Shown here in pieces: positions 3 through 62,429 of a stretch of DNA of 64,000 nt (position 1 is the stretch's first letter; each line of letters starts with the position of its first letter). The DNA comes from a virus (Duplodnaviria > Caudoviricetes), in the IMG/VR virus record IMGVR_UViG_3300027818_000041, positions 301 to 64,300 of that record. One strand, given 5' to 3'. Made by a program: the position numbers and the translations under genes. Under the pieces are notes generated by a model that saw only the letters and a program-made list of their open reading frames with translations, searched no databases and had not been told where the DNA came from.

Positions 3-326
3 ACATTATATAACTGGACTACTTATAACTTTCAATTTTCAACTTTAGTTCCTTTTGTAGATTCAACAACCATGAGTGCTTGGCCTAAGATTCTTCCAAG
101 TAACGGTATAAACATTACAAAAATATCTTTAGTGGCGCAAGATCAATTTGGAAATCCTTTGGTTTTTTCTAGGGTCACCTTTACAGATGACGATGTTGGT
201 GGTTATATTATGCGAATGGAATCTTATACTGATACAACCGGAATAGCTATAAATCATTATAGATCTGGAACGATACCCCGTACTGTCAATTTAACAGGGT
301 CAGTCATGACCATAATTAATCTCTGA
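3..326 (+). CDS. C-terminal part of a putative virion protein with an Ig-like (Big_1/invasin-like) module; truncated by the window start
   Basis: Frame is open from position 3 (TLYNWTTYNFQFSTLVPFVDSTT-MSAWP...), so the track ATG at 72 is probably internal. QDQFG...YTD..G...YRSG resembles RDQFG...VTDADG...YRSG in the next gene. Confidence 0.6.
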   Translation, partial: TLYNWTTYNFQFSTLVPFVDSTTMSAWPKILPSNGINITKISLVAQDQFGNPLVFSRVTFTDDDVGGYIMRMESYTDTTGIAINHYRSGTIPRTVNLTGSVMTIINL

Positions 327-3109
327 TGGCTAATAGCACACTAAACATAGAGGCAGAAGAGCCCACTTTTTGTGTAGGACCACAGGCAGGTACTTACTGC
401 ACAGTAGACTCTTATGAGCTTATTCCAGTGATGCGGGTTAAAAACTTTGATGGGGATTTAATAAGAAACTATGAGTTTGTTCCTAACAATATAATAAGCG
501 CCCCTACAGCCAATTATCCTTATAGTACTGTACTAGGGCTTAAATATATAGGTCCTATAGATTTAGCCTATTTCTATACAGGAGCACAGTTTTTTACATT
601 TGAAAAGACCTTTTCTGCAGCTTATCAATACTTAGATAAAAATACAGGGACATATACAACTAGACCTTACTCTGAAAGTTTTATAATACGCAGGTGGGCT
701 ATTGATCAAACTGTTTTTACCTTGAATTTTCAAGAAGCTTGGTATAGAAACAGTACTTCTTCTGATTTTTTTGATTGTTATGATTTTGCTTTAGAAAATT
801 ATGTTACTACGTTTGCTTCTAGTACGCCAGCTGGTACTGGGTACATAGAACTAACAACCACAAGCGGTATTCAGAAGTATGATACTTTGTTATTGGGACC
901 CAGTACTGATGCGGATAATACCGGCAAAGTAGAGTATGTATATGTTCACGAAGTTGTGGGCACTACTGTATATGTTAGAACATACGATGGAACATTTCCC
1001 ACACAATATGAATATGTTATAGGTAATCCCGTTACAAGATTGGGTAATTTTTTTGTTTTTAGTGATCCTAGACCATTAGTCATAGAGGACAAAGTAGACA
1101 GCTATGAGCATGATTATGGATATATGTATGAACTAGATTTGTCTGACTTCGCAGAAATATTAAACAAGGATTTATCGGGGGCATACAAGGGTGTTTATGG
1201 AGCCACTTGGAACTCTTTGTACGGGATGCCAACCTTTACTCGTTGGAACAATGTATTGTCTGTAGATCTGACTAATAATCAGATTTTTAAACCTCAAACA
1301 CTTCACAATATAGATTCTACTGGAGCAGCTTTTCCAGCATATGGTATTGAAATAGTTAGTTACGATGTTTTGCTTTTACAGAATAAAGCGTTTGTAAATA
1401 GTGATGCTGGGGTACAGTCCTATGTGTCTTTTAGTAGCTATAATATAATCTTAGATAGTTTACTTCCATATACATTTAATGTAGACGTTACTTCAGAATA
1501 TCAAACTCTGTTTAGAAACGATTTAACTACTATATATATAAAAGTGAGAGATCAGTTTGGTGTTGGTCTTTTAGGTAAAAATGTATATGTATATGATTCT
1601 GGTGGGGATCCGGATTCTACTTTAGACCCTCCTTCCGGGTATGTAGTAACAGACGCAGACGGATATTGCTCTGTTTTATATAGATCCGGTTTTAATTTTA
1701 CTGGAGAATCTACAGTAAGTGTTAGGTCCGATGGAGGAAATACTGTACATGGTAGTGCTTATGTGTGGGGCTATGTATCAATAAATACTTATCATGAGTA
1801 TGAAGTATCCCCCACTATTATAACACAACATTCTTTTGAGGATGTGGATTTCAGGACCTGGATTGTAGGTTTAGAAGACGTAGAGGAAAGTTTTAAAACC
1901 CATGAGATTCCTCCTTTGTGTTTTCCTAGACCAAGCTACGGCAGCTGCCCCAATCCTATAATTGATGGTACCATAAAGTCGCAATATCAAACAGTGCCAA
2001 TGATTCTTTTGTTATCCTTTCCTGTTCATGGGGCAGGAAGACGTCACTTTGATGAGGAGTATGATCTAGGACTTCTTCCTATTTTGTGTTCTTATAATGA
2101 GATGCATATAGAGCAGTTTACCATAAACCCATTTAACTGTAAATTGCCATGTTATACTGACCCAGATTCTACATGGATGCTTGATCAATTAATTTGTAGT
2201 AGGCACCTGGTGGGATTAAACATTTCTTCTACTACTGTGGATCAGTATGTGTTTGTCCAAGATGCCCGCCCTGCTTTTTTCTCTTATAAAAATACTACAG
2301 ACACGGATTATTGGATAAGATTAAGACCCTTTGCTTTTAGTTTGAATTTAAGCACCCTTTCTATAAAACTCAGAGAAGTAAATCAGGGATTTGGTATAGA
2401 CACGGGTTGGTACGAAATAGTCCCTCTTGGGACAGCGAGTAACTTTGATGCTGGTGGTGGAGTAGTAGGTGTGGATTTTATACACCAACCTTCAAACCCT
2501 TTTAGAAATAAAAGTATAGTATATGTGTATGTAGAAATCTATGACTTTGCTCCTATCCCGAATCTTTTACAAGTAGAGTATTGGTTTGAAATAATTGATG
2601 ATTATAGAAAACCATATATTTTTGATCGAGTTCCAGATGATGGTGATGTTTCTGTCCCAACAAATACATCGGTGACCTTTAAGATCGGGGATTGGGGTGC
2701 GGGCGTAAACATTAATACAATGGAATTTTTTGTTAATAATTCCTTAGTGCAACACAGTTATATTGCTTTAGATGAGCATTCCTATTATGTAGAATATCTT
2801 CCATTGTATGATTTTAAGTTTGGAGATACTGTGTATGTGTATGTTAGGGCTATAGATTTGGCTACAAATGAAAATGTTATGGTTGATAGTTGGCGTTTTT
2901 ATACCAGTAAGAGTACTGGTCCTTGGTTTGATTTTTCAAGTTTTAGACCGCTTCCTTGTAGAAGAGGTATTTCTAGAGTAAATACCTTAATTAGGTTTAG
3001 GGTTTATGGAATCGATGGTCATGGGCTTGATATAAGCACTCTTAATGTTCAAGTTAGAGGGGTTGAGAGTGATTTTACTGTTGTTCCTATCATTTATAGA
3101 ATTTCTTAA
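326..3109 (+). CDS. Putative virion structural protein with Ig-like domains (927 aa)
   Basis: Long ORF coupled to the upstream stop (TGATG). Has a Big_1-like segment (KVRDQFGVGL...VTDADG) and a C-terminal Ig-like segment (VPDDGDVSVPTNTSVTFKI...VYVRAIDLA). Confidence 0.6.
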   Translation: MANSTLNIEAEEPTFCVGPQAGTYCTVDSYELIPVMRVKNFDGDLIRNYEFVPNNIISAPTANYPYSTVLGLKYIGPIDLAYFYTGAQFFTFEKTFSAAYQYLDKNTGTYTTRPYSESFIIRRWAIDQTVFTLNFQEAWYRNSTSSDFFDCYDFALENYVTTFASSTPAGTGYIELTTTSGIQKYDTLLLGPSTDADNTGKVEYVYVHEVVGTTVYVRTYDGTFPTQYEYVIGNPVTRLGNFFVFSDPRPLVIEDKVDSYEHDYGYMYELDLSDFAEILNKDLSGAYKGVYGATWNSLYGMPTFTRWNNVLSVDLTNNQIFKPQTLHNIDSTGAAFPAYGIEIVSYDVLLLQNKAFVNSDAGVQSYVSFSSYNIILDSLLPYTFNVDVTSEYQTLFRNDLTTIYIKVRDQFGVGLLGKNVYVYDSGGDPDSTLDPPSGYVVTDADGYCSVLYRSGFNFTGESTVSVRSDGGNTVHGSAYVWGYVSINTYHEYEVSPTIITQHSFEDVDFRTWIVGLEDVEESFKTHEIPPLCFPRPSYGSCPNPIIDGTIKSQYQTVPMILLLSFPVHGAGRRHFDEEYDLGLLPILCSYNEMHIEQFTINPFNCKLPCYTDPDSTWMLDQLICSRHLVGLNISSTTVDQYVFVQDARPAFFSYKNTTDTDYWIRLRPFAFSLNLSTLSIKLREVNQGFGIDTGWYEIVPLGTASNFDAGGGVVGVDFIHQPSNPFRNKSIVYVYVEIYDFAPIPNLLQVEYWFEIIDDYRKPYIFDRVPDDGDVSVPTNTSVTFKIGDWGAGVNINTMEFFVNNSLVQHSYIALDEHSYYVEYLPLYDFKFGDTVYVYVRAIDLATNENVMVDSWRFYTSKSTGPWFDFSSFRPLPCRRGISRVNTLIRFRVYGIDGHGLDISTLNVQVRGVESDFTVVPIIYRIS

Positions 3110-3156
3110 TTTAACTAACTATTGATTAGTAGGAATAAATACTATCGGAGAAAGCA

Positions 3157-3840
3157 ATGTCTGAACCTATTATTACATTTCTTTATAATACTAGCCTTAC
3201 AGATACTTCCTACACAGGGACTGGGGAGGAAGTAGGTAATTGGAAAAAAATAAATACAACTACAGGATCTGGTGTTGTAGATGTAAAAGTTTTTACTGGT
3301 GGCGGAATAAATGGAACGATACCCTCACCCACAGCTCCTTATGGTAGTAGGGATGCTACACTTCGTCCATTAGCTGGTTGTCAGGTGATTCCTCAGACCT
3401 ATATTGAATCCTACAATGATAATATAATGCGTCAAGTTCCTTTGGCAGGTAGAACTACAAACAGGTATGTATTTTGTGTTTATGTGGAAGGCATTCTAAC
3501 AAGCGACTTATATATAGAGTGTTGGGATGATTCAAGTCTTTTAACTACAAGTGGTACTGTGTTATCCGGAACTGTTGCTTATCCCGGGAGTATGATAAAC
3601 GCAATCAGAACTACTACAGCTGCTCCTCCTTCTAATTGGGAGGGCGTAACTTTATCAGGTAGTTCCGAAATTACAACTAGCGGTGTTAAACTTAGTGGAT
3701 ATGAAAGCAGACTCAGACTGAAAGGGGCTGATTCGGTTCAAAACGAGGCATTATATTATAACATGTATGTATATTTACCTTATGATGCTCCTTTGTTTCA
3801 TTCTCAGCCTGTAGAGGCATTTAGATATATGTATATTTAG
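3157..3840 (+). CDS. Putative virion protein (227 aa), paralog of 4297-5235
   Basis: GGAG RBS upstream; Thr/Ser/Gly-rich; VFCV...ECWDD..TT...VL motif shared with 4297-5235. Confidence 0.55.
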   Translation: MSEPIITFLYNTSLTDTSYTGTGEEVGNWKKINTTTGSGVVDVKVFTGGGINGTIPSPTAPYGSRDATLRPLAGCQVIPQTYIESYNDNIMRQVPLAGRTTNRYVFCVYVEGILTSDLYIECWDDSSLLTTSGTVLSGTVAYPGSMINAIRTTTAAPPSNWEGVTLSGSSEITTSGVKLSGYESRLRLKGADSVQNEALYYNMYVYLPYDAPLFHSQPVEAFRYMYI

Positions 3841-3848
3841 AGGTTTTT

Positions 3849-4292: not shown

Positions 4293-4296
4293 TAAT

Positions 4297-5235
4297 GTGG
4301 CTGTAACACTTACGAAGAAATTTTGGACTGGGTCCACTTACACGAATGTATCTAAGATTGTATTTACATCTCCTAATATAACATCTCCAGCCGCCGCTGG
4401 GACTAGATCTCATATATTACCGGGGTCTCAGTATATAGGAACTTGGTTTGAAGCTGTAGATTTTATGTATCGTATTAAAAACAACCAAAACGCTCCCAGT
4501 ATTCAAGAGTGCTATTTTGCTGAGCTTCCAGTATATCAACCTACATTTGATTTTACCACCGGGACCACACTAAACCTGGCTTGTAAATACATTAGTACAA
4601 TAATATCTGGGACGGCTTTTCAGTATGATAGAAGCAATTATGGTTATTTCGCAACAGTATCAGGAACGGGTACTGTAATGTTGGATGGTATAACTTATAA
4701 TACTTATTATACTACATTATCAGGGGTTGTTGGTACGTCTACTATCTCTGGGAGTACAACCACCGCCTCTGGAACAGCCAGGGTTTATGCATGGAGAAGT
4801 ACTCTAAGTGGCACCTCTGTGTGGTCAAACTCACAAAAGGCTATTGTATTCGCGGTAGAGTTTGGGGAAGCTTATAATTGTAGACTAACCGCCTGGGATG
4901 ATGATACTCACACCACTACTGATAATAAAGTTTTAAGTGAGGAGCATTACAGAGTCACTGCATGTGCTTATAAAGCCGGGGGTAACACAAAACAGAACCC
5001 CACTTCTAATAATTTAAGCACTAATATGGTGGTTGCTCCTGGTATAGATATTCCTTTGAAGGGTAACGATGCATATTATGGTGATTTTGATCTTATATTT
5101 ATAGCTAATGGTGGTACCCTGGGGACAGAACATGGAGAGTATTTAATATTTACACCAAGGCTGGTAAATATGGATGATTCTTTTACCAGTGGTAATTATG
5201 ATTTTGTTACAACAATACATTATCAGTATACATAA
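4297..5235 (+). CDS. Putative virion protein (312 aa) with a T-x-S-G-rich insert
   Basis: GTG start after AAGG; Thr-rich; VFAV...TAWDD..TT...VL motif shared with 3157-3840. Confidence 0.55.
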   Translation: MAVTLTKKFWTGSTYTNVSKIVFTSPNITSPAAAGTRSHILPGSQYIGTWFEAVDFMYRIKNNQNAPSIQECYFAELPVYQPTFDFTTGTTLNLACKYISTIISGTAFQYDRSNYGYFATVSGTGTVMLDGITYNTYYTTLSGVVGTSTISGSTTTASGTARVYAWRSTLSGTSVWSNSQKAIVFAVEFGEAYNCRLTAWDDDTHTTTDNKVLSEEHYRVTACAYKAGGNTKQNPTSNNLSTNMVVAPGIDIPLKGNDAYYGDFDLIFIANGGTLGTEHGEYLIFTPRLVNMDDSFTSGNYDFVTTIHYQYT

Positions 5236-5246
5236 ATGGCTAAGTC

Positions 5247-6659
5247 GTGGTTGATACTACTCAAGATATCTACGTTGATACCGAGATATCTTCTTTATCT
5301 GACTGGGAGATCTTTTTACCTACTTATGTAACGATTGGTTCTGGAACAAACACAGGGGTGGATGTACGGAACACTATAGGGTATGAGGACGCTACCTTAG
5401 TCTATGAGTTTATAACTACAAATTATGGTTTTGGAACAGGTATTTCTTCTTTTGTAGATACAGACTTGACTTGGACTGTGGCTACTGCTCTTTCAGGGAC
5501 TGCTGTACTAGGGGCGGATACAACAACTACCTTTGATTACAGAAATATAACCTATTCAGGAAGTTATGTATTGCCGGTGAGTTTTTTGTATGGATCGGTA
5601 GACTACATTGGTTACATTTTTGTAGAAAATGAGCTTGTCTATTTAGATACTATGCCCGCTTTACCAGACAATACTTTTGTGGAAGTTAGGGTGTATATAG
5701 GGGTTGTTGATAAGAGACAGGATACTTTTATAGATTTGACACTGTCTAACTCGAAAATATATAAAAACGATATTAGTGTAATATGTGCTGATTTGGCAGT
5801 GTGTTCTGGTATTTGTTGTGATATAGAAAACGGAACGGGAAGAGTTGGGATTTTTAATCAAGATTTATATAATAGTCTTCAATTAACTAAATATATTGAT
5901 ACCGATTTATTAGTATCTACATTAGAGTATGGTTCCTGTAATTTTGATGTTTTTATAGGTACTGGAACTGTAGGGTATAATTTAGATGATTTGATTTCTG
6001 CTAATCAGGGTATTTATATAGCTGATATTTGTGATATACGAACCTGGAGTTTAGAGATAAGTAATTTTTTTCTAACAGAAGGTTCTTTTTGTGAAGATAC
6101 GGCTACTATGTATGTGGATTTAACTGACACTTTATATAGTATAGAGACTTCAGATTGTTATTTTAAGATTGATGGTTCAGTTGTTTCAGTTACATTGTCT
6201 GGGATTGCCTTTGGTTACAGGATGTTTTATGATCCTATAGACAATTATGCCACCAAAGGAACTTTAGTTGTTACTGCTCATACCAAAAACAATATGGGCG
6301 ATATACTTGAGCAAGACTTTTATCTATTACATGGGTATGATGTTCAATATATTCAGAGAGAAATGTGGCCGCCAGTTGAGAATATATTTATTAGAATGGC
6401 AGCTAATAATGAAACTTTTTGTGTAAACACAGCAGGGGATTCATTTTATTTTGAAACTGTGGATTTGCCTTCTTATTCGTTGGGAGCAAGTATTCATCCA
6501 GTGTCTTACGTTGACTTGGTTTCAACTATACATCCACAATCCACTGCTTTCTTCTATGGAGGCAGTTATACAGTAAGAATTAGCAATATTAAGGACTACA
6601 ACGGAAACGTATTAGAAGATGTTGTATTTTCTTTTGAAATAGAAAACCCTATAAGTTAG
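5247..6659 (+). CDS. Putative virion protein with C-terminal Ig-like domain (470 aa)
   Basis: Long ORF in the structural block; C-terminal SYTVRISNIKDYNGNVLEDVVFSF is typical of Ig-like beta-sandwich ends. Confidence 0.55.
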   Translation: MVDTTQDIYVDTEISSLSDWEIFLPTYVTIGSGTNTGVDVRNTIGYEDATLVYEFITTNYGFGTGISSFVDTDLTWTVATALSGTAVLGADTTTTFDYRNITYSGSYVLPVSFLYGSVDYIGYIFVENELVYLDTMPALPDNTFVEVRVYIGVVDKRQDTFIDLTLSNSKIYKNDISVICADLAVCSGICCDIENGTGRVGIFNQDLYNSLQLTKYIDTDLLVSTLEYGSCNFDVFIGTGTVGYNLDDLISANQGIYIADICDIRTWSLEISNFFLTEGSFCEDTATMYVDLTDTLYSIETSDCYFKIDGSVVSVTLSGIAFGYRMFYDPIDNYATKGTLVVTAHTKNNMGDILEQDFYLLHGYDVQYIQREMWPPVENIFIRMAANNETFCVNTAGDSFYFETVDLPSYSLGASIHPVSYVDLVSTIHPQSTAFFYGGSYTVRISNIKDYNGNVLEDVVFSFEIENPIS

Positions 6660-6670
6660 GAGGATTATAA

Positions 6671-8260
6671 ATGGTTGCTACTACACGTTGGGTTTTATAC
6701 CCAATAGATGCGGAAGGTGATATTGGTACTGGAAACGGGGCAGATTGTAGAGGTACTCAAGGGTACAGTATAGCAGAGGCTTCGTCTGGGGATAGTTTTA
6801 CTGTAGGCAGTACCACAGATAGATTATACCTTAGTATTGATGGCGAGGCTGCTCCTTACATTACACTTACATCAGGAACATTGTTGGATCCTAGGTTTGT
6901 TGCGAGGGATATTACGGAAAAGCTTCATGATCTGGGCAAAAGCACAGAGGCTTGGAACAATGCTAAGTGTGTTTGGCTTAATACACAAGATAGGAGTGGT
7001 GCTTTTAAGATTATTTCAGGCACCTTAGGAAGTGCTTCTTCTGTTGTTGTTACCCAATCAGGTACAAATAGTGTTGCTGCTACACTGGGTTGGTCAAACA
7101 AGACAGAGAATGGTGGAACTACTGCTCCAGCACACAGCAATCCTTATGTATTTACTGGGGATGTTACTGTTTCCGGCACTTATTATGGATTTTTTGATGA
7201 AACATATACCATAGTAATGTCTAATGATTCTTTTGTTGGGAGTCCTACTGCTCCCCGGGGAATAAAAGCTCCAACAAAAGATGCAGCAAACTCATATACA
7301 GGTACTATAAGCACTGGTGGTGTTTTTAACGCCGCTACAGATATAACATACGTTATAGCCATAGATGTCACTAACGGTACTACTATGGGTGCAGGGACGG
7401 GTAATGTTCCTACAATGACTTGGTCTTCTACTAGTGATGATGATTCTACTATCTCTGTTGAACTCCTGTACCCCAATCATTGGTATTTTGTGGGTGAATG
7501 GGGAGTAATGGTTAAATTCACAGATGCTGTATTTAATACATGCTCGCCTGCTTGGACTATAGAGTGCTATAAACCAGATTACGTGTATGGTGCCAATGCT
7601 CAAGCAGTATGTGGTTTGGCTCAATATGTGTGGGGGTCAGATAGAGGAGACGACAGTGCAACGCCTATAACCACACAATCTGGTTCATTTACACAACTGG
7701 GGGCACGAGGACTTACTATTAGATTTAATCCGGTAGGTGTGGATAACTTTACAGCTGGGGATGAGTTCAGAGTTATTTGTGCTGGTCCGGCACCCACAAG
7801 TTATAATATATCGAGCATCAACTATGGTAATGTGACCGTATCCACCGAGTCCCCAGTGAAAGCGTTACTTTTTGAAATTATGTCAGGCGCGGTTGAAATG
7901 TCAACCGTAAAGTTTGGTTTGAATAGCCATGGATCTTTCAGCCATCACTATGCCGGAAACAACGACACTTTTTTTAGATTTGGAACGGTGGGTCCAGCAA
8001 ATAATGGGGGTGTTGCTCCGACAGATGGAATAGAGTGGGTTCCTAATTTATTGGCGGCGGACATTGATAGTGACACACCCCCTAACTATTTATATAGTAC
8101 AAAAGCTAATTTAACTGTGGTTAGTACTGCGGATGACAGCCAGGCGGTTGGGAGTTATGGACTGACTTCAGATCCTATATGGGTAAATATTAAGCTTGGT
8201 GTGGCAGAAACAGGGGCAAATAGTACTATCCTTAATAGGGTGTTTTTTGATTATACTTAA
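6671..8260 (+). CDS. Putative virion/tail structural protein (529 aa)
   Basis: GGAGG RBS; Gly/Thr/Ser-rich beta-strand composition; shares a segment with the 2693-aa protein. Confidence 0.6.
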   Translation: MVATTRWVLYPIDAEGDIGTGNGADCRGTQGYSIAEASSGDSFTVGSTTDRLYLSIDGEAAPYITLTSGTLLDPRFVARDITEKLHDLGKSTEAWNNAKCVWLNTQDRSGAFKIISGTLGSASSVVVTQSGTNSVAATLGWSNKTENGGTTAPAHSNPYVFTGDVTVSGTYYGFFDETYTIVMSNDSFVGSPTAPRGIKAPTKDAANSYTGTISTGGVFNAATDITYVIAIDVTNGTTMGAGTGNVPTMTWSSTSDDDSTISVELLYPNHWYFVGEWGVMVKFTDAVFNTCSPAWTIECYKPDYVYGANAQAVCGLAQYVWGSDRGDDSATPITTQSGSFTQLGARGLTIRFNPVGVDNFTAGDEFRVICAGPAPTSYNISSINYGNVTVSTESPVKALLFEIMSGAVEMSTVKFGLNSHGSFSHHYAGNNDTFFRFGTVGPANNGGVAPTDGIEWVPNLLAADIDSDTPPNYLYSTKANLTVVSTADDSQAVGSYGLTSDPIWVNIKLGVAETGANSTILNRVFFDYT

Positions 8261-8301
8261 TATATATTTTTAGCCACAGGTCATTATCTTTGGACGTTGG
8301 A

Positions 8302-8355: not shown

Positions 8356-8362
8356 CTTGTCA

Positions 8363-9769: not shown

Positions 9770-9790
9770 GTTTACATGAGGGGTTACTCT

Positions 9791-10090: not shown

Positions 10091-10092
10091 AT

Positions 10093-15615: not shown

Positions 15616-15625
15616 GGTGTGTAGT

Positions 15626-34046: not shown

Positions 34047-34077
34047 GCTATAAGATATAATTTAACAAGGAGTTTTT

Positions 34078-41061: not shown

Positions 41062-41066
41062 GTGCC

Positions 41067-44930: not shown

Positions 44931-44939
44931 GGAGAGGCT

Positions 44940-47509: not shown

Positions 47510-47522
47510 TAAGAGAGTTTTT

Positions 47523-49173: not shown

Positions 49174-49180
49174 GATTTAT

Positions 49181-50254: not shown

Positions 50255-50257
50255 GTT

Positions 50258-53276: not shown

Positions 53277-53279
53277 TTT

Positions 53280-54089: not shown

Positions 54090-54111
54090 TCATAAATATA
54101 TAGGAGCTTTT

Positions 54112-54903
54112 ATGGACGTTGGTATAATAGGGATTGGTGTTGTGGGTGGTGCTATAAAATATGGGTTTGAAAAATTAGGACACAAGGTTGTTTGTCATGA
54201 TATAGCTTTGGAGACTAAAATAGAGGACGTTTTAGCCACCGAGATTTGCTTTGTGTGTGTTCCCACCCCCTCCAAAGATTCCGGTGAATGTGATACTTCC
54301 ATTGTGGAATCAGTTGTTGACAAACTGGCAGAATTAAAGTATACTGGTATAATAGCTATAAAATCAACAGTGGCGCCCGGAACAACAAATAAATTAAAAG
54401 AAAAGACTGGACTACTTATTTGTTTTGTTCCTGAGTTTTTAAGAGAAAGATGTGCAGTCACAGACTTCACAGAAAAACACGACGTCTGTATAGTAGGCAC
54501 CGAAGATACATCAATATATTCAAAAATAAAAGAAGCACATGGAAGATATCCCAAGGAGTTTGTAATGCTGACTCCTACGGAGGCTGAGCTTTGCAAATAC
54601 TATAATAATATTTTGAATGCCTCGCTTATAACATTTGCTAATAGTTTTCATGAAGTATGTAATAGTTTTGGTGTAAACTATTCGAATGTAAAAAACGCTA
54701 TGGTAAAGCGCGACCACATTACAGATATTTATTTAGACTGTAATGAGAATATACGGGGCTTTGCTGGTCCCTGTTTATTGAAAGATTTGAAAGCCATAGC
54801 CAATGTTTGTGAAAGAGAAATGCTGAATGTTGATTTCTTTAAGACGCTTCTATCAGAGAATGCAAAATACACAGCTACGGTCTTTGAAGGTATGCGTAAG
54901 TAG
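54112..54903 (+). CDS. UDP-glucose/GDP-mannose 6-dehydrogenase family protein lacking the C-terminal domain
   Basis: VGIIGIGVVG, CVPTP, KSTVAPG, PEFLRE, AELCKY, GFAGPCLLKD. AGGAG RBS favours ATG 54112 over the track start 54064. Confidence 0.8.
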   Translation: MDVGIIGIGVVGGAIKYGFEKLGHKVVCHDIALETKIEDVLATEICFVCVPTPSKDSGECDTSIVESVVDKLAELKYTGIIAIKSTVAPGTTNKLKEKTGLLICFVPEFLRERCAVTDFTEKHDVCIVGTEDTSIYSKIKEAHGRYPKEFVMLTPTEAELCKYYNNILNASLITFANSFHEVCNSFGVNYSNVKNAMVKRDHITDIYLDCNENIRGFAGPCLLKDLKAIANVCEREMLNVDFFKTLLSENAKYTATVFEGMRK

Positions 54904-54911
54904 GAGGAGTT

Positions 54912-55340
54912 ATGATTCTTATTGCTCATAGAGGAAATATAAACGGACCTAATCCCGAGAAAGAAAACAATCCTGATTATATTAAAGAGGCGCTTTCTTT
55001 GGGGTACGATGTAGAGGTAGATGTTTGGGATGTGAGGGGCGGGCTTATGTTAGGACACGATTATCCACAACATTCAATACCATTTAGTTTCTTAGAAAAC
55101 AAACATTTATGGATTCATTGTAAAACTGTAGAGACACTTAGTCGTTTAGTTATATACCCAATCAACTGTTTCTTTCATAATGTAGATGATGTTGTTCTGA
55201 CCTCAAAAGGCTACCTGTGGACTTATCCTGGAAAACCGCTATATGGAAACTCTGTGTGTGTTTTGCCAGAGCTTTTTCCAGAGCAGACTATTCCAAACAT
55301 TATTGGTATGTGCAGTGATTTTGTAGAGAAATACAAATGA
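54912..55340 (+). CDS. Short glycerophosphodiester phosphodiesterase-like protein
   Basis: IAHRGN...EN...DVEVDVW...GHD...WIHCK motifs; 142 aa. Confidence 0.7.
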   Translation: MILIAHRGNINGPNPEKENNPDYIKEALSLGYDVEVDVWDVRGGLMLGHDYPQHSIPFSFLENKHLWIHCKTVETLSRLVIYPINCFFHNVDDVVLTSKGYLWTYPGKPLYGNSVCVLPELFPEQTIPNIIGMCSDFVEKYK

Positions 55341-56716
55341 TTAAGTTAATAGTATTTGATCTAGATGGCGTCTTAGTAGAATCCAAAGAAATACATTTCT
55401 TATCTCTGAACGATGCTTTACGTGCGGTGGATGAGAGGTATGTTATTTCAAAGGATGACCATCTACGAAACTTTGATGGCTTGCCTACTAGAAAAAAACT
55501 AATAAAGCTTACAGACACCAAACTTCTTCCTCAGAAGTACTATGATACAATCTGGAAAACTAAACAGGAGTTTACCACAAAATACATAAGACAGACCCCA
55601 AGAAATGATAGATTGTGTAATTTGTTTAGTAAGCTGAAAGAGAGTGATGTTTCCATATATGTTTGTTCCAATGCCATCAGGCAAACGACTAAGCTATATC
55701 TTATAGCTTTAGGACTTATTGAATATGTGGATGGGTTCATTTCTAATGAGGACATTGTGCACCCTAAACCACATCCAGAAATGTATATGAAAGCGATGGT
55801 TATGGAGCATGTGTCCCCCAAGGAAACACTTATTATAGAAGATTCCCATGTAGGAATTACTGCTGCAGTAGAATCTGGAGGAAACGTTCTTATAGTTAAA
55901 AATCCAAGTGAAACCACAGAAGAGCGTGTTTTTGGTCGTATATCACACATAAATAATAAGTCCACCATTAAAATAAAATGGAAAGGTGACAAGATGAACA
56001 TTATTATTCCGGCGGCTGGGGCAGGTAGTAGATTTGCAAATGCAGGATATACATTTCCCAAACCATTAATCGATGTTAATGGAAAACCAATGCTTCAGGT
56101 TGTGGTTGAAAATCTTAATATAGAGGGAATTTACACATATATAGTACAAAAAGAGCATTATGATAAGTATAATCTCAAATATCTGCTGAACATGCTCACT
56201 CCAGGCTGTAATATCGTCTGTGTTGATAGTTTAACGGAGGGGGCAGCCTGCACTACCCTTTTAGCTAAAGACTTTATAAATAACGATTCTGCCCTTTTAA
56301 TTGCCAATTCGGATCAGTATATAAAATGGGATAGTGTAGAGTTTATGTATACAATGACAGCAGGTCAAGTAGATGGAGGTATCCTGACTTTTCGTAGTAC
56401 ACATCCAAAGTGGTCATATGCTAGGCTGGACGAGGAAGAATATGTTTGTGAGGTTGCTGAGAAACGTGTCATATCTGACATGGCTACTGTTGGGATCTAC
56501 TACTGGGCTCATGGGTCTGACTACGTTAAGTACGCAGAACAAATGATTAACAAGAATATTAGAGTTAATAATGAGTTTTATGTAGCACCTGTGTTTAATG
56601 AGGCTATAGCGGATAATAAAAAATTTAAGATCTTTGATGTAGACAAGATGTTAGGGCTAGGAACTCCAGAGGATTTACAGCATTTTCTACGGGAGCTTGA
56701 GAATGGTAGAGTTTAG
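55337..56716 (+). CDS. Fusion of a HAD-IA phosphatase and a BcbE-like sugar nucleotidyltransferase
   Basis: FDLDGV...KPHP...IEDS (HAD), then MNIIIPAAGAGSRF...PKPLI...EGAAC...NSDQ...HPKWSY...NNEFYV...LGTPEDL. Confidence 0.85.
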   Translation: MIKLIVFDLDGVLVESKEIHFLSLNDALRAVDERYVISKDDHLRNFDGLPTRKKLIKLTDTKLLPQKYYDTIWKTKQEFTTKYIRQTPRNDRLCNLFSKLKESDVSIYVCSNAIRQTTKLYLIALGLIEYVDGFISNEDIVHPKPHPEMYMKAMVMEHVSPKETLIIEDSHVGITAAVESGGNVLIVKNPSETTEERVFGRISHINNKSTIKIKWKGDKMNIIIPAAGAGSRFANAGYTFPKPLIDVNGKPMLQVVVENLNIEGIYTYIVQKEHYDKYNLKYLLNMLTPGCNIVCVDSLTEGAACTTLLAKDFINNDSALLIANSDQYIKWDSVEFMYTMTAGQVDGGILTFRSTHPKWSYARLDEEEYVCEVAEKRVISDMATVGIYYWAHGSDYVKYAEQMINKNIRVNNEFYVAPVFNEAIADNKKFKIFDVDKMLGLGTPEDLQHFLRELENGRV

Positions 56717-57407
56717 TAATGATGAAAAGCAAGTTATAAATACTTCTCAAAAAATATATGATAGCTTTAATGATTTCATCTTCAGTAACGATACTAAGGT
56801 TTTCTCCAAGCTTATAGCTCGAACTGTGCTTTTCAAGCAGGTTATGGATGTTCCTGGGGATATAGTAGAGTGTGGCGTGTTTAAGGGGTCTGGGGTTCTT
56901 ACTTGGTTGAAACTCAAGCACTGTCTAGCCTATAATAGCTTTAAGAAAATTGTTGGCTTTGATTTCTTTAATACAGCAGAACTACTAAAGATTCTAAACG
57001 GCATAGATCGAGAGCGGATGGAAGACCTTTTTATATCAAGAGGATTTTCTTTGAATGAATCCTATGTTAAAGTACTTGAAGATATAATTCATAGTGCCGG
57101 ATTTAGTAAGTCTACTTATGAGTTGATCTCAGGAGATATCTCTAACACAGCCTTTGATTATGTACGCAAAAGACCTGGGGCTAAAATATCACTGCTCTAT
57201 CTTGATCTTGATTTAGAGAAACCCACTTATGACGCACTTGGGGCTTTTTGGGATATAGTGTCTGTAGGAGGTATAGTGGTCTTTGATGAGTATGCTTATC
57301 ATCAATGGTCGGAGGCAAGAGGAGCAGATCGTTTTTTTAATTCGAAGAAAATAAAAATAGTTACTCTTCCATACAATGCTCCAACAGCCTATGTTGTAAA
57401 GGAGTAG
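56703..57407 (+). CDS. TylF/MycF/NovP-family sugar O-methyltransferase
   Basis: VPGDIVECGVFKGSG, GFDFF, LLYLDLDL, GGIVVFDEY. ATG 56703 after GGAG preferred to the track TTG 56697. Confidence 0.85.
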   Translation: MVEFSNDEKQVINTSQKIYDSFNDFIFSNDTKVFSKLIARTVLFKQVMDVPGDIVECGVFKGSGVLTWLKLKHCLAYNSFKKIVGFDFFNTAELLKILNGIDRERMEDLFISRGFSLNESYVKVLEDIIHSAGFSKSTYELISGDISNTAFDYVRKRPGAKISLLYLDLDLEKPTYDALGAFWDIVSVGGIVVFDEYAYHQWSEARGADRFFNSKKIKIVTLPYNAPTAYVVKE

Positions 57408-57409
57408 TC

Positions 57410-58096
57410 ATGCGTGTAGCCTTATTACAGACTATGTATGACGAACATGAGATTGTACTACACAACATTAATGTTGTGTCTAACCTGTATAAAGACTCTT
57501 TGTTTTTTGTGACACATTCTTTTGACAGGAACTCAGAGACGTTGGAAGTAATTAAAAATAGAAGTAAATACAAGGCGCTAAAGAATCTTGTTGGGGATGT
57601 TGAACGGTTAAAATTACCGGCGTATGCTGTGACCAGGAATTACTCTGATTTATTTTCTAATCTTTATGCCTCAAGGGAGAATGTAGATCTTGTGGTGGCT
57701 CTCATGGGGGACACAAAAATAGTTGATGCAAAAAGCTTTGAGAGAAGGTTTAATGAAATGATGGAGCATAATTACAAATTATATGCATGTCAGGCTAAAA
57801 CACAAGTATTTTGGTCCAGTGATAAAACATTAGACAGAGTACAGACTGATGACCTTGCAGATTTTATGCCTCAGTTGTTTTTTGTAGACGGGCATTTCAC
57901 AAAAACTACCAGGGTTTTTTGTAATGTGCCAATAACAAATGAATACACAACAGAACAATGTTTAGGTGATGCCTTTTTACAGCAAGCGCAGTTGTCTGAT
58001 ATTGGAAGATTAAATAAAGAGCCAACTTATTGGAAAGACTACCAGGATGGTATAATATGGCAGGCTTTAACCAATGGGGCTCCGGGTAGACCATAG
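57410..58096 (+). CDS. Hypothetical protein in the glycan island
   Basis: AAGGAG RBS; 228 aa; no family recognised. Confidence 0.55.
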   Translation: MRVALLQTMYDEHEIVLHNINVVSNLYKDSLFFVTHSFDRNSETLEVIKNRSKYKALKNLVGDVERLKLPAYAVTRNYSDLFSNLYASRENVDLVVALMGDTKIVDAKSFERRFNEMMEHNYKLYACQAKTQVFWSSDKTLDRVQTDDLADFMPQLFFVDGHFTKTTRVFCNVPITNEYTTEQCLGDAFLQQAQLSDIGRLNKEPTYWKDYQDGIIWQALTNGAPGRP

Positions 58097-58105
58097 AGGA
58101 ACGAT

Positions 58106-59122
58106 ATGGAGACAGTTCTTGTTACCGGTAGTCAGGGGTTTGTAGGATCATATTTTTGTGCAGAACTACTAAAGAATAACTATAAGGTTATAGGCATTGA
58201 TAACTACTCAAAGTACGGTAAAGTATTAAGAGGACACGATTCGCATCCAAATTTTGTTTTTTATGAGGGGGATGTTCTTGATGTGCTTCCAGCAAAGGCT
58301 TTTTTCGAGGTGGATTACATCGTTTGTCTTGCTGCTATGATTGGGGGTATCTCTTATTTTCATAGATATGCATACGATTTATTGGCAACCAACGAGCGCA
58401 TTACAGCTACTACTTTTGATAAGGCGATATCTTTGTATAAGCAACATCGTCTTAAGAAAATTGTCAATGTATCAAGCAGTATGGTTTTTGAAAATACAGA
58501 TGTTTTTCCTACTCCGGAAGAAGAAGTAATGCATTGTCCTCCTCCTCTAAGCACATACGGGTTTCAGAAATTGGCTACGGAGTATTTCTGTAAGGGTGCC
58601 TTTGAGCAGTATGGGTTGCCTTATACAATAATAAGACCTTTTAATTGTATTGGTATAGGGGAGGAAGAGGCATTGTCTGATGATGTCGCTGTATATGTTG
58701 GTAATAAAAAAATGCTTATGAGTCATGTTTTACCTGACTTTATTTTTAAGGCATTACACTTAGGACCAGACGAAGAATTTCCTATTTTGGGGGAAGGTAA
58801 TCAAGTCCGTCATTTCACAAACGGTAAGGATCTTGCTAGAGGAATTAGATTAGCAATGGAATCCGAAGCTGCCAACGGAGAGGTGTTTAATATTTCGCAT
58901 CCTAGACCTGTGTCCATCAAAGAATTAGCTGAGATGGTTTGGGGTTTTATTCACAATACACCTATAAAGTTAAAATCATATCCTCCTTATAAATATGATG
59001 TTCAGTATAGGAGCCCTGTTGTGGAGAAAGCGGAAAGAATTCTGGGTTTTAAGGCAGAGATAGATGTAGAGGAGAGTGTAAAGGAAGTTATAGATTGGAT
59101 GCGAAATAACATAAAAGACTGA
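58106..59122 (+). CDS. Extended SDR nucleotide-sugar epimerase/reductase (Fcl/GME-like features)
   Basis: TGSQGFVG, LAAMIGGI, SSSMVF, YGFQK, RPFNCIG, Q.RHFT...DLA. Confidence 0.85.
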   Translation: METVLVTGSQGFVGSYFCAELLKNNYKVIGIDNYSKYGKVLRGHDSHPNFVFYEGDVLDVLPAKAFFEVDYIVCLAAMIGGISYFHRYAYDLLATNERITATTFDKAISLYKQHRLKKIVNVSSSMVFENTDVFPTPEEEVMHCPPPLSTYGFQKLATEYFCKGAFEQYGLPYTIIRPFNCIGIGEEEALSDDVAVYVGNKKMLMSHVLPDFIFKALHLGPDEEFPILGEGNQVRHFTNGKDLARGIRLAMESEAANGEVFNISHPRPVSIKELAEMVWGFIHNTPIKLKSYPPYKYDVQYRSPVVEKAERILGFKAEIDVEESVKEVIDWMRNNIKD

Positions 59123-59130
59123 GAGGATGT

Positions 59131-59490
59131 ATGTGTGATTCTTTAGGAGACTATATAGAAACATTTATAAAAAAAGCGGTTACTGCTTATGATCAGAGTT
59201 TTAATTGCCCCGATACATTTGAAGAGTTAATTAGCTTTGGTGAGCTAGTAGATCGATTGTCTATTATAAATTTCAAGTTATATAAATTAAAAGACGAAGT
59301 TATGGATCGGCAGGATGATGATACTTTCAAGGCATGGGCGGCTGTGGAGGATGTTAAACTCGTAAGAGAAAGATCTCGTCTTAAAAAATGTATAGATGAA
59401 AAGATAATTGCCATGATTACTCGCGTGTACAAGGGCGACATCTCCTGTGGGTTTAATCCAGAGGTTAAAAAGTACGGACAGTTGCCCTAA
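59131..59490 (+). CDS. DUF4254/DUF6165-like helical protein
   Basis: SFGELVDRLSIINFKLY...RSRLKKCIDE. Confidence 0.5.
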   Translation: MCDSLGDYIETFIKKAVTAYDQSFNCPDTFEELISFGELVDRLSIINFKLYKLKDEVMDRQDDDTFKAWAAVEDVKLVRERSRLKKCIDEKIIAMITRVYKGDISCGFNPEVKKYGQLP

Positions 59491-60125
59491 TGAGTGGCAA
59501 GTTGTTTCAGGATACAAAAACCTTTTGGGAAGAATGCCATGAGAAAGGTCTTGAAGTTTCTTTATCAGGGTCTAAATATGATGAGGTTATAGATTCTCTC
59601 AAGATAGGGGCATATATAATTCCTGGGGCTAAAGTGTTAGAGATAGGCACTGGTCTTGGCTTTGTAACAAAGGGCTTATATGATAAAGGAGTATCTGTAA
59701 GCGCTCTAGACATTTCGGAAGTTTGTTTAGCCAGAGTTAAAGATTATTGTGAGCAGCTTTTTCCAGTCTCGGAAATAAACAAGTTACCGTCTAATTATTT
59801 TGATTGTATTATTTGTGTAAATGTGGTACAACATATACCTACAGAACTATTAAAGGTAGAACTGGTCAATTGCATTAGGGCATTAAGGAAATATTCTGGT
59901 GTTTTTGCTGTAGAGTTCGTCTCTAATAAAGATGCGGAAGATACTGGTATTGACGCAGACCTAAGCACAATAAAGAACGGTCTTTGTTGTAGAACACCTA
60001 AGTATTTTTCAAGTTTGGTGGAAGAGGCTGGGGGAAATTGTAATATTATAATTAGTAATAAATGTGATATAAACGGGATACATGGTTGCCATGTAGCTCA
60101 CATTTGGAGGAATAGGGATGTTTGA
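59490..60125 (+). CDS. Class I SAM-dependent methyltransferase
   Basis: KVLEIGTGLG, ALDISE, FDCIICVNVVQHI. Confidence 0.85.
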   Translation: MSGKLFQDTKTFWEECHEKGLEVSLSGSKYDEVIDSLKIGAYIIPGAKVLEIGTGLGFVTKGLYDKGVSVSALDISEVCLARVKDYCEQLFPVSEINKLPSNYFDCIICVNVVQHIPTELLKVELVNCIRALRKYSGVFAVEFVSNKDAEDTGIDADLSTIKNGLCCRTPKYFSSLVEEAGGNCNIIISNKCDINGIHGCHVAHIWRNRDV

Positions 60126-61110
60126 AGGACAACGTATTTTGATCACGGGTTCTACAGGATCGTGGGGGCAAGAACTAACTAAACAGCTTCTTGAGTCCTA
60201 TAATCCTAAAAAAATTATAGTGTATTCTCGTGGAGAATTGGCGCAAGTAAATATGCAGCGGAAGTTTAATGATCCTCGCTTGGAGTTTGTTATAGGAGAC
60301 GTTAGAGATTATTCTGCTGTTGAGCGAGTATTTGCTAGAGGTGTAGATTATGTCGCCCACCTGGCGGCGTTGAAACACGTTCCTGTTTGTGAAAACCAGC
60401 CACAGGAGGCAATCAAGACAAATATTGATGGTACAACCAATCTCGTAAATGCCGCGATTAAATATAAGATTAAGAAATTTCTGGATGTGAGTACTGACAA
60501 GGCTGTATCCCCCACAAATACATATGGTTTTACTAAAGCAGTAGGTGAAAAAATAGTTATACAAGCAAATAATTTAACAGATGATACCGATTTTGTTTGC
60601 ATTAGAGCTGGAAATGTGTTAGGTTCCAATGGTAGTGTAGTTCCTCTATTTATTGATCAGATAGCTCGTTATAATAAGATCACTGTAACCTGTGGTAAAA
60701 TGACTCGTTACTTTATGACTCTTCCTGAGGCTATTAGTTTAATATTCAAAGCGGCTGAACACTCTGTTGGTGGAGAAACCTTCGTAATGCATATGCCGGC
60801 TTTTCATATTCAAACTTTAGCAGAGGTTATGATCGCTCACTACGGTAATTCTCTTACTAAGATAGAAGAAATAGGAATTAGAGAAGGCGAGAAGATGGAT
60901 GAGCTTCTTATTTCAGAACACGAGGCTCCTCGTTCTGTTGTGTATGATGATGATTATTATGTTATTAAATCGGATCTTAAGATAAACAGGGATTATTCTC
61001 ATTTGGATAATAAATCTAAGGTACCTTTTACCAGTTATTCATCTTCTTATGAAATAAAAGATTTTGATTATTTGCATACTTTGTTGAAGCGTGGAGGGTT
61101 TTTGAAGTGA
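60118..61110 (+). CDS. UDP-GlcNAc 4,6-dehydratase (PseB/FnlA-like)
   Basis: ILITGSTGSWG, GDVRD, AALKHVP, TNIDGT, STDKAVSPTNTYGFTK, GNVLGSNGSVVPLF, MTRYFM, GIREGEK. Confidence 0.9.
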   Translation: MFEGQRILITGSTGSWGQELTKQLLESYNPKKIIVYSRGELAQVNMQRKFNDPRLEFVIGDVRDYSAVERVFARGVDYVAHLAALKHVPVCENQPQEAIKTNIDGTTNLVNAAIKYKIKKFLDVSTDKAVSPTNTYGFTKAVGEKIVIQANNLTDDTDFVCIRAGNVLGSNGSVVPLFIDQIARYNKITVTCGKMTRYFMTLPEAISLIFKAAEHSVGGETFVMHMPAFHIQTLAEVMIAHYGNSLTKIEEIGIREGEKMDELLISEHEAPRSVVYDDDYYVIKSDLKINRDYSHLDNKSKVPFTSYSSSYEIKDFDYLHTLLKRGGFLK

Positions 61111-61901
61111 TAATACATGTTTTAGGTAGTAACGGTATGTTGGGTAGATATGTATTTATGTATCTAAATAGTAAATTTAGTAATGTAGTAGGATATACAA
61201 GAAAGAATATAGACGCTTCAGTTACTGACGACATTCCTTTGGTTCTTTCAAAGGGGGATGTAGTGGTTAATTGTATTGGGTTGATTCCTCAGCGGGGGGT
61301 CAAAAATCCTATTAACTATATAACAATAAATGCTCTATTTCCACATCTAGTTTCTTCTATGTGTGATACAGTAGGTGCTACGTTCGTCCACATCAGCACA
61401 GACTGCGTTTTTTCAGGAACTACAGGTAGTTACACGGAGGATTCTGTACACGATGCTACAGATTTATATGGTAGAACCAAGTCTTTGGGCGAACCAGAAA
61501 ATGCTACAACTATAAGAACCTCTATTATCGGGGAAGAATTGGTAAATAAAAAATCGCTATTGGAGTGGGTTAGATCAATGGCAGGTAAAGATATAAATGG
61601 ATATACCAACCACTATTGGAATGGGGTTACCTGTCTTTGTTTAGCCAAAATTATAGCAGATACTATATCAAACAATTCATTTTGGGTTGGGGTTAAACAT
61701 ATATATTCTTCAGAAGTTGTTAGTAAGTATCTATTGGTGGGGCTAATAAGTAATATTTACGGTCTGGATATTAAAATCAATCCTGTAAAAACACCCACCA
61801 CATGTAATAAATCTCTTAAATCTGTAAGAGATGATATAATCATAGAGGTGCCTAGTCTGGGCATTCAAATAGCCGAACAAAAGGATTATAGTTTGTTGTG
61901 A
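61107..61901 (+). CDS. RmlD-like NDP-4-keto-6-deoxyhexose reductase
   Basis: VLGSNGMLG, VNCIG, HISTDCVFSG, YGRTKSLGE, IRTSIIG. Confidence 0.85.
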   Translation: MIIHVLGSNGMLGRYVFMYLNSKFSNVVGYTRKNIDASVTDDIPLVLSKGDVVVNCIGLIPQRGVKNPINYITINALFPHLVSSMCDTVGATFVHISTDCVFSGTTGSYTEDSVHDATDLYGRTKSLGEPENATTIRTSIIGEELVNKKSLLEWVRSMAGKDINGYTNHYWNGVTCLCLAKIIADTISNNSFWVGVKHIYSSEVVSKYLLVGLISNIYGLDIKINPVKTPTTCNKSLKSVRDDIIIEVPSLGIQIAEQKDYSLL

Positions 61902-61907
61902 AAGAAG

Positions 61908-61936
61908 TTGCCTTTGTTGGAATTGTATGGTATACT
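61908..61936 (+). promoter_or_regulatory. Sigma70-type promoter with extended -10, restarting transcription before the clamp loader and polymerase genes
   Basis: TTGCCT (61908-61913), 17-nt spacer ending TGG, TATACT (61931-61936); GGAGG RBS before ATG 61959. Confidence 0.65.
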
Positions 61937-61958
61937 TAATTGTATATCAGGAGGGATT

Positions 61959-62429
61959 ATGGATGATCTTAAGAGTCAGGGAATAAAGATAATTGTTTCA
62001 GAGTTTGATGGTGTTATGACTGATGGTACTTCTGCAACAGATACCATGGGATTTACAGTTATGAAGAATGTATATATGCCTGATTTTGAAGCAATTAATA
62101 GTTTGAAGAGTATGGGGTATATATTTGTATTTCTTTCTACAGATAATATGGTTACGTATAATCTTTTGAAGTCTAAGAATATTCCATTTTTCTGGGCTCA
62201 GGCAGACAAACCATCTGTTTTAGGTAAGATTCTTCAAAGGTATGAGTTTACTCCTGATCATCTTCTGTACATTGGTAGTAAGGTCTCTGATTATAGGTGT
62301 ATGACTATGGCAGTCGCCTCTGCTTGTCCAGAGGGTTCTATAAGTAAAACCACCCAGTCTACCATGATTATCCCTGCCAAGGGTGGTCAAGGGGTGATCT
62401 CCAAACTACTATCAATTCTTCAATTGTAA
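61959..62429 (+). CDS. KdsC/YrbI-like HAD protein with degenerate catalytic motifs
   Basis: IVSEFDGVMTDG and YIGSKVSD versus canonical DVDGVLTDG and GDD..D. The track TTG 61908 falls on the -35 box, so ATG 61959 is preferred. Confidence 0.7.
   Translation: MDDLKSQGIKIIVSEFDGVMTDGTSATDTMGFTVMKNVYMPDFEAINSLKSMGYIFVFLSTDNMVTYNLLKSKNIPFFWAQADKPSVLGKILQRYEFTPDHLLYIGSKVSDYRCMTMAVASACPEGSISKTTQSTMIIPAKGGQGVISKLLSILQL

Follow-up and report, generated by a model that had tools for sequence, protein, structure and literature searches.

Chloroviruses glycosylate their capsid protein with virus-encoded cytoplasmic glycosyltransferases (GTs), and their N-linked glycans occupy atypical sites, in contrast to O-linkage at T-x-S-G. 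In mycobacteriophages, glycans are reported at the C-termini of capsid and tail-tube subunits (Freeman et al. 2023, as cited in PMC12619734). The moraphages are aquatic jumbo phages of up to 307 kb that encode DnaJ, DNA polymerase I and four core putative glycosyltransferase orthogroups, and Bacteroidota are their predicted hosts (PMC12619734, Arch Virol 2025). The DNA analysed here, the window, is a stretch of 64,000 nucleotides from the IMG/VR record IMGVR_UViG_3300027818_000041 (Caudoviricetes; positions 301 to 64,300). Its left half encodes tail-module proteins that are rich in the motif T-x-S-G, and its right half contains an island of sugar genes. A preliminary description of the window proposed that T-x-S-G is an O-glycosylation sequon through which the particle is coated with rare sugars. 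The enrichment of T-x-S-G is a protein-level and not a DNA-level signal. It is limited to the distal tail module, and it is clade-wide in a group of uncultured jumbo phages. On balance, the evidence leans towards T-x-S-G being mainly a structural short motif of beta-rich tail proteins.

The 16 open reading frames (ORFs) left of position 34050 (11,259 amino acids, aa) contain 33 T-x-S-G motifs, compared with 7.0 expected from per-protein composition. The hand count in the preliminary description was about 30 with a single-digit expectation, and its per-gene counts (4 in 3157-3840, 5 in 4297-5235, 6 in 24138-26408, 4 in 26419-29082 and 4 in 31385-34021) are exact. The enrichment holds under composition-matched shuffling. 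Whole-protein shuffles of the left ORFs (5,000 replicates) have a mean of 7.0 and a maximum of 18, and block shuffles of 10-100 residues have means of 7.3-8.2 and a maximum of 20. Among all 8,000 patterns of the form a.bc, T.SG ranks first (Poisson p 1.1e-12), while the five other permutations of T, S and G occur 2-10 times each in the same ORFs. The extended motif T.SG[TVIS] occurs 27 times (2.3 expected) and T.SGT 11 times (0.6 expected). The fuller form of the motif is [T/V/A]-T-[V/I/T/S]-S-G-[V/T/I/S]. In a profile of 325 instances from the clade, beta-branched or hydrophobic residues occupy x and +4, and charged residues and Pro are reduced 3-10 fold at these positions. The Bacteroidota O-glycosylation sequon D-[S/T]-[A/I/L/V/M/T] is not enriched in the tail proteins (49 versus 44.7 expected, 1.1x).

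The 37 right-hand ORFs (9,908 aa) contain a single T-x-S-G, a TNSG at residue 95 of the Epimerase_2 protein encoded at 49181-50254. The statement that the replication and glycan proteins lack the motif is therefore not exact, and their apparent depletion is not significant, either in the window (1 versus 2.25 expected, p=0.34) or when relatives are pooled (6 versus 7.35).

Five other explanations of the excess are ruled out. A DNA-level cause is excluded by the codon usage of T, S and G within the motif, which equals the background. Recent paralogy is excluded by BLAST, which finds only two weak pairs among the 16 left-hand proteins, and local patches rich in T, S and G are excluded by the block shuffles. 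Post-hoc choice of the motif is not congruent with its first rank among the 8,000 patterns and with its replication in 28 tail ORFs of relatives that have no window homolog. Inheritance of a few conserved sites is excluded by the number of distinct motif columns (142, of which 103 are singletons).

The enrichment is present throughout the clade. In five metagenomic relatives, the syntenic genes are 4.3-6.7x enriched. When 15 records are pooled, the orthologs of the window tail proteins contain 235 motifs versus 53 expected. The tail-module ORFs of relatives without a detectable window homolog are the most enriched (50 versus 5.1), and T.SG is again the top pattern (p 4e-32). This replication is independent of the post-hoc choice of motif. 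In the ortholog alignments, 232 motifs (54.5 instances expected) occupy 142 distinct columns, 103 of which are lineage-specific, and motif density is therefore kept by turnover as well as by inheritance. In the family of the 529-aa protein (6671..8260), one motif column is common to five of six sequences. The enrichment is not uniform: the upstream virion-side ORFs of the relatives (12 versus 8.2 expected), the 1840-aa protein family and the D-L-x-S repeat protein family are at or near baseline. The upstream ORFs have no PHROG match, and the window does not include the genes for capsid and tube. This distribution, with enrichment in the distal tail module and not in the rest of the virion-side proteins, counts against a coat signal for the whole particle, as previously proposed.

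Proteins from outside the clade provide a baseline. In 82 out-of-clade LamG-containing proteins from bacteria, archaea and the candidate phyla radiation (P0115-P0196), T.SG occurs 183 times versus 91 expected and again ranks above every other ordering of these three residues. The virion proteins of T4 (L035, L036) contain 12 motifs versus 6.3 expected, those of Synechococcus phage S-CBS4 contain 13 versus 7.5, and those of Tetrasphaera phage TJE1 contain 5 versus 2.5. Because the LamG, T4, S-CBS4 and TJE1 controls are all near 2x, a roughly twofold preference for T-x-S-G is general in beta-rich proteins. The 4-10x density of the clade is an amplification of this preference, which makes up about half of the excess. 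A generic property of phage fibres is accepted only in part as a cause: the baseline is about 2x, and the T4 long fibres gp34-37 contain 2 motifs versus 2.2 expected and the lambda virion proteins 2 versus 2.4. The twofold baseline should be subtracted from any claim of a Ser/Thr-Gly sequon in phage tail proteins.

Within the clade, the motif recurs in at least four structural contexts, some of them conserved elements. In the alignment of the 756-aa protein family (24138..26408), T124, S126 and G127 are invariant in 8 homologs down to 24% identity. This invariant site is in a 'APRYVRITVSGV'-type jelly-roll strand, at the end of an 'APRYVRI-TVSG-V' strand. In the AlphaFold2 model of the 756-aa protein (predicted local distance difference test score, pLDDT, 73), T-L-S ends the strand 120-126 and G127 starts the turn to the strand 130-139; TCSG234 is placed likewise. 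A tandem fibre repeat, F-L-D-L-x-D-T-P-x-T-Y-S-G-x-x-G-x-Y-L-x-x-T-x-S-G-I-E-F, contains two motifs per unit, and its TYSG core is kept in about 80% of 66 repeat units (T 52, Y 61, S 52, G 53). A homolog search with this repeat returned only similar environmental phage contigs and so offers no comparison with proteins beyond the clade. The motif is also present in blade-like beta units such as 'LGT-TDSG-VKCI', which from their sequence we read as possible propeller blades. In the 887-aa protein (26419..29082), a TVSG at residue 827 marks the start of a CarboxypepD_reg-like domain (weak Pfam match).

The 312-aa protein (4297..5235) has all of its motifs in one segment. In its AlphaFold2 model (pLDDT 86), two motifs are inside a long beta-hairpin, one is at a strand end and two are in coil. 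Residues 67-173 form a small beta-barrel in the model, and the top structural matches of this region are phage baseplate and tail-tip proteins with middling scores (Z 6-7.4). A Foldseek search of the PDB with the 312-aa model has no match. As modelled, the motif segment is a folded beta-barrel and not a mucin-like loop. Across the two models, motif context was judged from DSSP strings, which give secondary structure only. By this measure, 4 of 11 motifs are at a strand end entering a tight turn, 2 are inside hairpin strands, 1 is at a strand start and 4 are in coil.

These contexts suggest how a structural motif could reach such a density. Thr and a hydrophobic residue would end a beta-strand, and Ser-Gly would begin a turn or a domain junction. 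Beta-sandwich proteins of all kinds would use this strand-to-turn solution at about twice chance. In the clade, the motif would have become fixed in the consensus of modules that baseplate and fibre proteins exchange with one another, namely the tandem 'DTP-x-TYSG...TxSG' fibre repeat, the blade-like beta units, a jelly-roll strand and the first strand of the CarboxypepD_reg-like domain. Fixation in these exchanged modules would lift the density to 4-10x. Separate from the motif, the phage has a hypervariable, membrane-free sugar cassette with two conserved GT4-like anchors inside the replication module. The enrichment and its statistics, its conservation throughout the clade, the generic baseline and the structural settings of the motif are observed; that structure alone accounts for the clade-specific excess is our inference.

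Several observations weigh against this reading. A gap of 2-5x separates the clade from the generic baseline, and none of composition, local composition, recent paralogy, codon bias or inheritance accounts for it. The motif is residue-specific in the left ORFs, with 33 T.SG versus 7 S.SG, 11 T.TG and 8 V.SG. The strongest enrichment is in the ORFs without a window homolog, and most motif columns are lineage-specific. In the models, 7 of 11 motifs are not at a strand end entering a turn, and their DSSP context is heterogeneous. In addition, all relatives in which the slot is covered (4/4) have a conserved, soluble GT pair alongside the motif.

The GT pair is the conserved part of the sugar island. 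The island consists of 22 ORFs; a sugar-related Pfam or PHROG match exists for 16 of them, and the remaining 6 lack one. The pair is directly downstream of the nuclease gene in the four relatives that cover the slot, and its members are 49-58% identical within the clade. No relative without the pair was found, and five further IMG/VR relatives end before the GT slot. Orthologs of the first GT (43512-44930) are 51-56% identical at the syntenic site in G001-G004, and its E-x7-E motif (E340 and E348) is invariant in 5 orthologs. The second protein (44940-46067) has conserved only the first Glu of E-x7-E. For both proteins, the best PDB match is 3oy2, 'Glycosyltransferase B736L', with remote similarity (E 6e-6 and 9e-6). 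We take B736L to be a chlorovirus enzyme. Homologs of the first GT are present in TJE1 (35% identity), where the gene adjoins a nucleotidyltransferase, an epimerase and a methyltransferase, and in S-CBS4; weak homologs in Arthrobacter phages are annotated as glycosyltransferases. In S-CBS4 (L038:9916-12282), the GT homolog, a galactosyltransferase and an S-adenosylmethionine-dependent methyltransferase are located between the portal gene and the head protease and major head protein genes. As a cultured cyanophage, S-CBS4 is a tractable system for tests of virion glycosylation with this GT family.

Downstream of the GT pair, the cassette is bounded by the ORF at 61908-62429 and the clamp loader at 62442-63512. 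About half of its content is common to G001. The G002 and G004 cassettes instead contain GT2s, GFO/IDH/MocA oxidoreductases, a hexapeptide acyltransferase, an Asn-synthase-like enzyme and methyltransferases. Because the content downstream of the pair differs between relatives, this is a hypervariable glycan cassette at a fixed site. A hypervariable cassette with two core GT4-like anchors suggests a glycan under diversifying selection. Within the cassette, the match of the UDP-sugar dehydrogenase ORF (54064-54903) is restricted to the central domain and to positions 69-182 of the N-domain, and the flanking ORFs (53280-54089 and 54912-55340) have no family. This gene may be split, truncated or rearranged (53280-55340).

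The co-occurrence of the GT pair and the motif bears on the sequon proposal. In this explanation, the GT4-like pair at 43512-46067 would be a clade-conserved cytoplasmic O-glycosyltransferase that recognises T-x-S-G, displayed as strand, Ser-Gly loop and strand, as its acceptor, and the cassette would extend a strain-specific glycan on baseplate and fibre proteins ahead of assembly. The strong, residue-specific and clade-wide enrichment, arising repeatedly at new positions, is consistent with a sequon, as are the 49-58% identity of the pair in 4/4 relatives and the invariant E-x7-E of its first enzyme. A hypervariable sugar cassette is the expected outcome of diversifying selection on an exposed glycan. 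The position of the S-CBS4 homolog between the portal and major head protein genes and the shared match to 3oy2, whose chlorovirus origin is presumed, point in the same direction. However, TJE1 and S-CBS4 contain a GT homolog and have only baseline motif density. The expectation that motif density tracks the presence of the GTs therefore fails across clades. Conversely, the excess is not specific to GT-bearing genomes, as T4 and the out-of-clade LamG proteins reach about 2x without such a GT. The motif is also integral to conserved repeats and strands, cytoplasmic phage proteins do not avoid it, other virion-side proteins are not enriched, and the pair is within the replication module rather than the late module. 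We therefore regard the sequon explanation as unlikely.

If it were true, a cytoplasmic two-protein GT4 system with T-x-S-G-[T/V/I/S] as its acceptor tag would O-glycosylate baseplate and fibre proteins across a Bacteroidota jumbo-phage lineage, with the cassette extending the primer sugar into strain-specific glycans; this outcome is equally unlikely. Phage virion glycosylation would thereby gain its first defined sequon, and the tail fibres would vary in both protein and sugar. A programmable sugar coat on fibres would matter for host recognition, for escape from defences and antibodies and for phage engineering. Glycosylated virions could also be recognised in metagenomes by a simple rule at the sequence level. 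The probability left by the structural and sequon explanations belongs to other or mixed causes.

In a second alternative, the motif has no connection with the island, and the two GT-B enzymes together with the cassette would attach sugars to a hypermodified base of the phage DNA to counter restriction. The pair is directly after a PD-(D/E)XK nuclease, among replication genes and before the clamp loader and PolA. In phages, GT-B enzymes that work with epimerases and HAD or nucleotidyltransferase partners add mono- to trisaccharides to 5-hydroxymethylcytosine (bioRxiv 10.1101/2023.12.21.572611). The relative L004 contains a divergent thymidylate-synthase-family gene (L004:13107-13868), located between fibre genes and the beta-clamp. 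The best PDB match of this gene is ThyA (E 1e-9, C-terminal half), and it could be a pyrimidine hydroxymethylase. DNA glycan hypermodification clusters are defined by a C5-methyltransferase with a 5mYOX enzyme, or by a ThyS-like enzyme (Pyle et al., bioRxiv 10.1101/2023.12.21.572611). Among the 53 ORFs of the window, no C5-methyltransferase, 5mYOX/TET enzyme or recognisable hydroxymethylase is present. Seven GT-like genes and four or five sugar pathways are far beyond any DNA glycan in that report, and the PDB matches of the conserved GTs include no sequence match to the T4 alpha- or beta-GT. This alternative is also unlikely.

A third alternative is that the island remodels the host envelope, with soluble GTs and nucleotide-sugar enzymes acting on undecaprenyl-linked intermediates that are then handled by the host flippase, polymerase and ligase; here too the motif is unrelated. 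Among the components of Wzx/Wzy pathways, the initiating transferase, flippase, polymerase and ligase alone are embedded in the membrane, and the elongating GTs are soluble or peripheral. The FnlA/B/C-like, GMD, DegT, WecB-like and methyltransferase content is typical of O-antigen and capsule loci. The predicted hosts of the probable lineage are Bacteroidota (PMC12619734). Against this, there is no evidence of lysogeny, a lytic jumbo phage has no obvious gain from envelope remodelling, and the two GTs that anchor the cassette belong to the core genome of the clade and are not morons. We consider this alternative quite unlikely.

The preliminary description listed 22 glycan genes without export machinery. 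The sugar assignment stands for the 16 matched ORFs and not for the other 6. The lack of membrane proteins stands for the window, which is only about one quarter of the genome: no ORF has a 19-mer above a Kyte-Doolittle value of 2.0, and none of the membrane components of a Wzx/Wzy or ABC locus (initiating transferase, flippase, polymerase or transporter) is present. The UDP-sugar dehydrogenase fragment has the most hydrophobic 19-mer (1.97), at its N-terminus. Soluble GTs could work on lipid-linked intermediates of the host, so that missing export genes carry no information. As acceptor of the island, a virion protein, at whichever sites, is the likeliest of three candidates, though at less than even odds. 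DNA and host envelope intermediates are each less likely, and neither is preferred over the other.

The features of the window are listed in Table 1.

Table 1. Coordinates of tail-module and sugar-island features in the window. Ortholog-group values are T-x-S-G motifs observed versus expected; G numbers are relatives.
Feature	Coordinates	Strand	T-x-S-G	Ortholog group	Matches and remarks
927-aa tail-module protein	326..3109	+	1	9 vs 2.2	No Pfam/PHROG family; orthologs in G001, G003, G004, G005
227-aa protein	3157..3840	+	4		No family; orthologs in G001, G003
312-aa protein	4297..5235	+	5		All motifs in residues 120-172
470-aa tail-module protein	5247..6659	+	2	15 vs 1.3	
529-aa conserved tail-module protein	6671..8260	+	3	14 vs 4.0	Orthologs E 1e-175 to 1e-223
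HNH homing endonuclease interrupting the tail operon, non-virion	8357..9769	+	0		phrog_559 E 1e-104; CapR and weak Mom-like domain
1840-aa protein	10093..15615	+	0	4 vs 4.8	No family; internal negative control
2693-aa giant tail protein	16047..24128	+	3	51 vs 18.6	Pfam Laminin_G_3, F5_F8_type_C
756-aa protein	24138..26408	+	6	67 vs 8.5	Motifs in residues 16-278; short regular strands at C-terminus
887-aa tail protein	26419..29082	+	4		Two LamG, CarboxypepD_reg-like C-terminus (weak Pfam); phrog_17517 'tail protein'
766-aa D-L-x-S repeat protein	29085..31385	+	1	6 vs 3.2	T-x-S-G not enriched
878-aa LamG-containing fibre-like protein	31385..34021	+	4	16 vs 2.5	
Clade-conserved GT4-like (GT-B) glycosyltransferase	43512..44930	+			phrog_2170 E 1.8e-45; Pfam Glycos_transf_1 below curated cut-off
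Second clade-conserved GT4-like protein	44940..46067	+			Glycos_transf_1 above curated cut-off; orthologs in G001, G002, G004, E ~1e-125 to 1e-146
Variable sugar cassette	46188..61901	+			Pfam: GT2, GT32-type DXD protein, further GT4-like protein, UDP-GlcNAc 2-epimerase, GDP-mannose 4,6-dehydratase, DegT-family enzyme; also UDP-sugar dehydrogenase fragment, HAD-nucleotidyltransferase, TylF-like and class I methyltransferases, short-chain dehydrogenase/reductase (SDR) epimerases, Polysacc_synt_2, RmlD-like reductase
173-aa conserved flank ORF	61908..62429	+			No Pfam/PHROG match; orthologs adjoin clamp loader in G001, G004

The contig is 64.3 kb with a G+C content of 36-40%, and the 53 long ORFs of the window are all on the + strand. 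The left 34 kb encode very large proteins, mostly without a family match in Pfam or PHROG. The matches that are present are LamG, discoidin, a weak CarboxypepD_reg, one PHROG 'tail protein' and the inserted HNH homing endonuclease. The right 30 kb encode a beta-clamp, RecA, DnaB, primase, DnaJ, RuvC and the PD-(D/E)XK nuclease. The nuclease is followed by the 22 ORFs of glycosyltransferases and nucleotide-sugar enzymes and then by the clamp loader and a PolA exonuclease.

In megablast and tblastn searches of GenBank phages with the tail proteins, no related cultured phage was found, and scans of IMG/VR with single proteins returned no matches. Homologs of the 756-aa protein are found in the same gene order in metagenomic contigs, the longest of which reach 250 and 311 kb, and in IMG/VR fragments with an estimated completeness of 9-37%. 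For relatives of 45-97 kb, CheckV completeness is 14-37%, which implies a genome of roughly 260 kb. Because the contigs of relatives reach 250 and 311 kb and the fragments are 9-37% complete, the window represents about one quarter of the genome of an uncultured jumbo phage.

Several further observations concern individual genes. The C-terminal domain of the 312-aa protein recurs at the ends of many fibre-like proteins of up to 2,500 aa. The 1840-aa protein (10093..15615) is conserved throughout the clade (E 1e-43 to 1e-94). D-L-x-S is the top ab.c pattern of the tail proteins (20 versus 4.6), and this excess is attributed, following the preliminary description, to the 766-aa repeat protein (29085-31385). 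The phrog_559 HNH endonuclease is present in 5 copies in G001 and 7 copies in G002, at differing sites that include the tail module and the interior of the sugar cassette. These enzymes behave like a very active homing endonuclease family. Some orthologs of the replication and GT proteins are oversized. A RecA ortholog has 1142 aa (358 in the window), and two GT orthologs have 818 and 727 aa (472 and 375 in the window). The long orthologs are at G003:10521-13946, G002:46728-49181, G002:52636-54816 and L023:9454-11022, with a LAGLIDADG ORF nearby, and they may contain inteins or inserted domains.

The window and its relatives are probable, tentative members of the moraphage lineage. Their size is in the jumbo range of the moraphages, judging by the 250 and 311 kb contigs of relatives, and genes for DnaJ, a PolA exonuclease and a conserved GT pair are present in the window. 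These features fit the assignment. Unlike the present locus, the moraphages are described in PMC12619734 with mention of neither a T-x-S-G motif nor a hypervariable sugar cassette.

The sugar island shares with phage DNA glycan clusters the combination of GT-A or GT-B enzymes with epimerases, HAD proteins and nucleotidyltransferases, and here these genes are inside the replication module. It differs from them in that the defining neighbours are absent from the window and the cassette is far larger than a trisaccharide needs.

Among systems that glycosylate proteins, the autotransporter heptosyltransferases Aah and TibC, which act on AIDA-I, TibA and Ag43, are similar in that Phi-T-Phi-S-G-Phi could present their acceptor geometry (PMC3835316, citing Charbonneau et al. 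2012). They are different in that Aah has no sequence consensus, while the motif here is sharply defined. Their geometry is matched by only 4 of 11 motifs, as judged from DSSP in two AlphaFold2 models. No homolog of the Aah/TibC heptosyltransferases is present among the island proteins, which have GT4, GT2 and GT32-type matches only (Pfam, PDB). In the mycobacteriophages, according to PMC12619734, phage-encoded glycosyltransferases decorate the structural proteins of the phage itself; a comparable arrangement is conceivable here. In contrast to the C-terminal glycans of mycobacteriophages, the motif here is internal and is confined to baseplate- and fibre-type proteins. Besides the remote match to 3oy2, there is a likeness of concept to the chlorovirus machinery, in that the virus itself would supply membrane-free enzymes and rare sugars for making a glycan.

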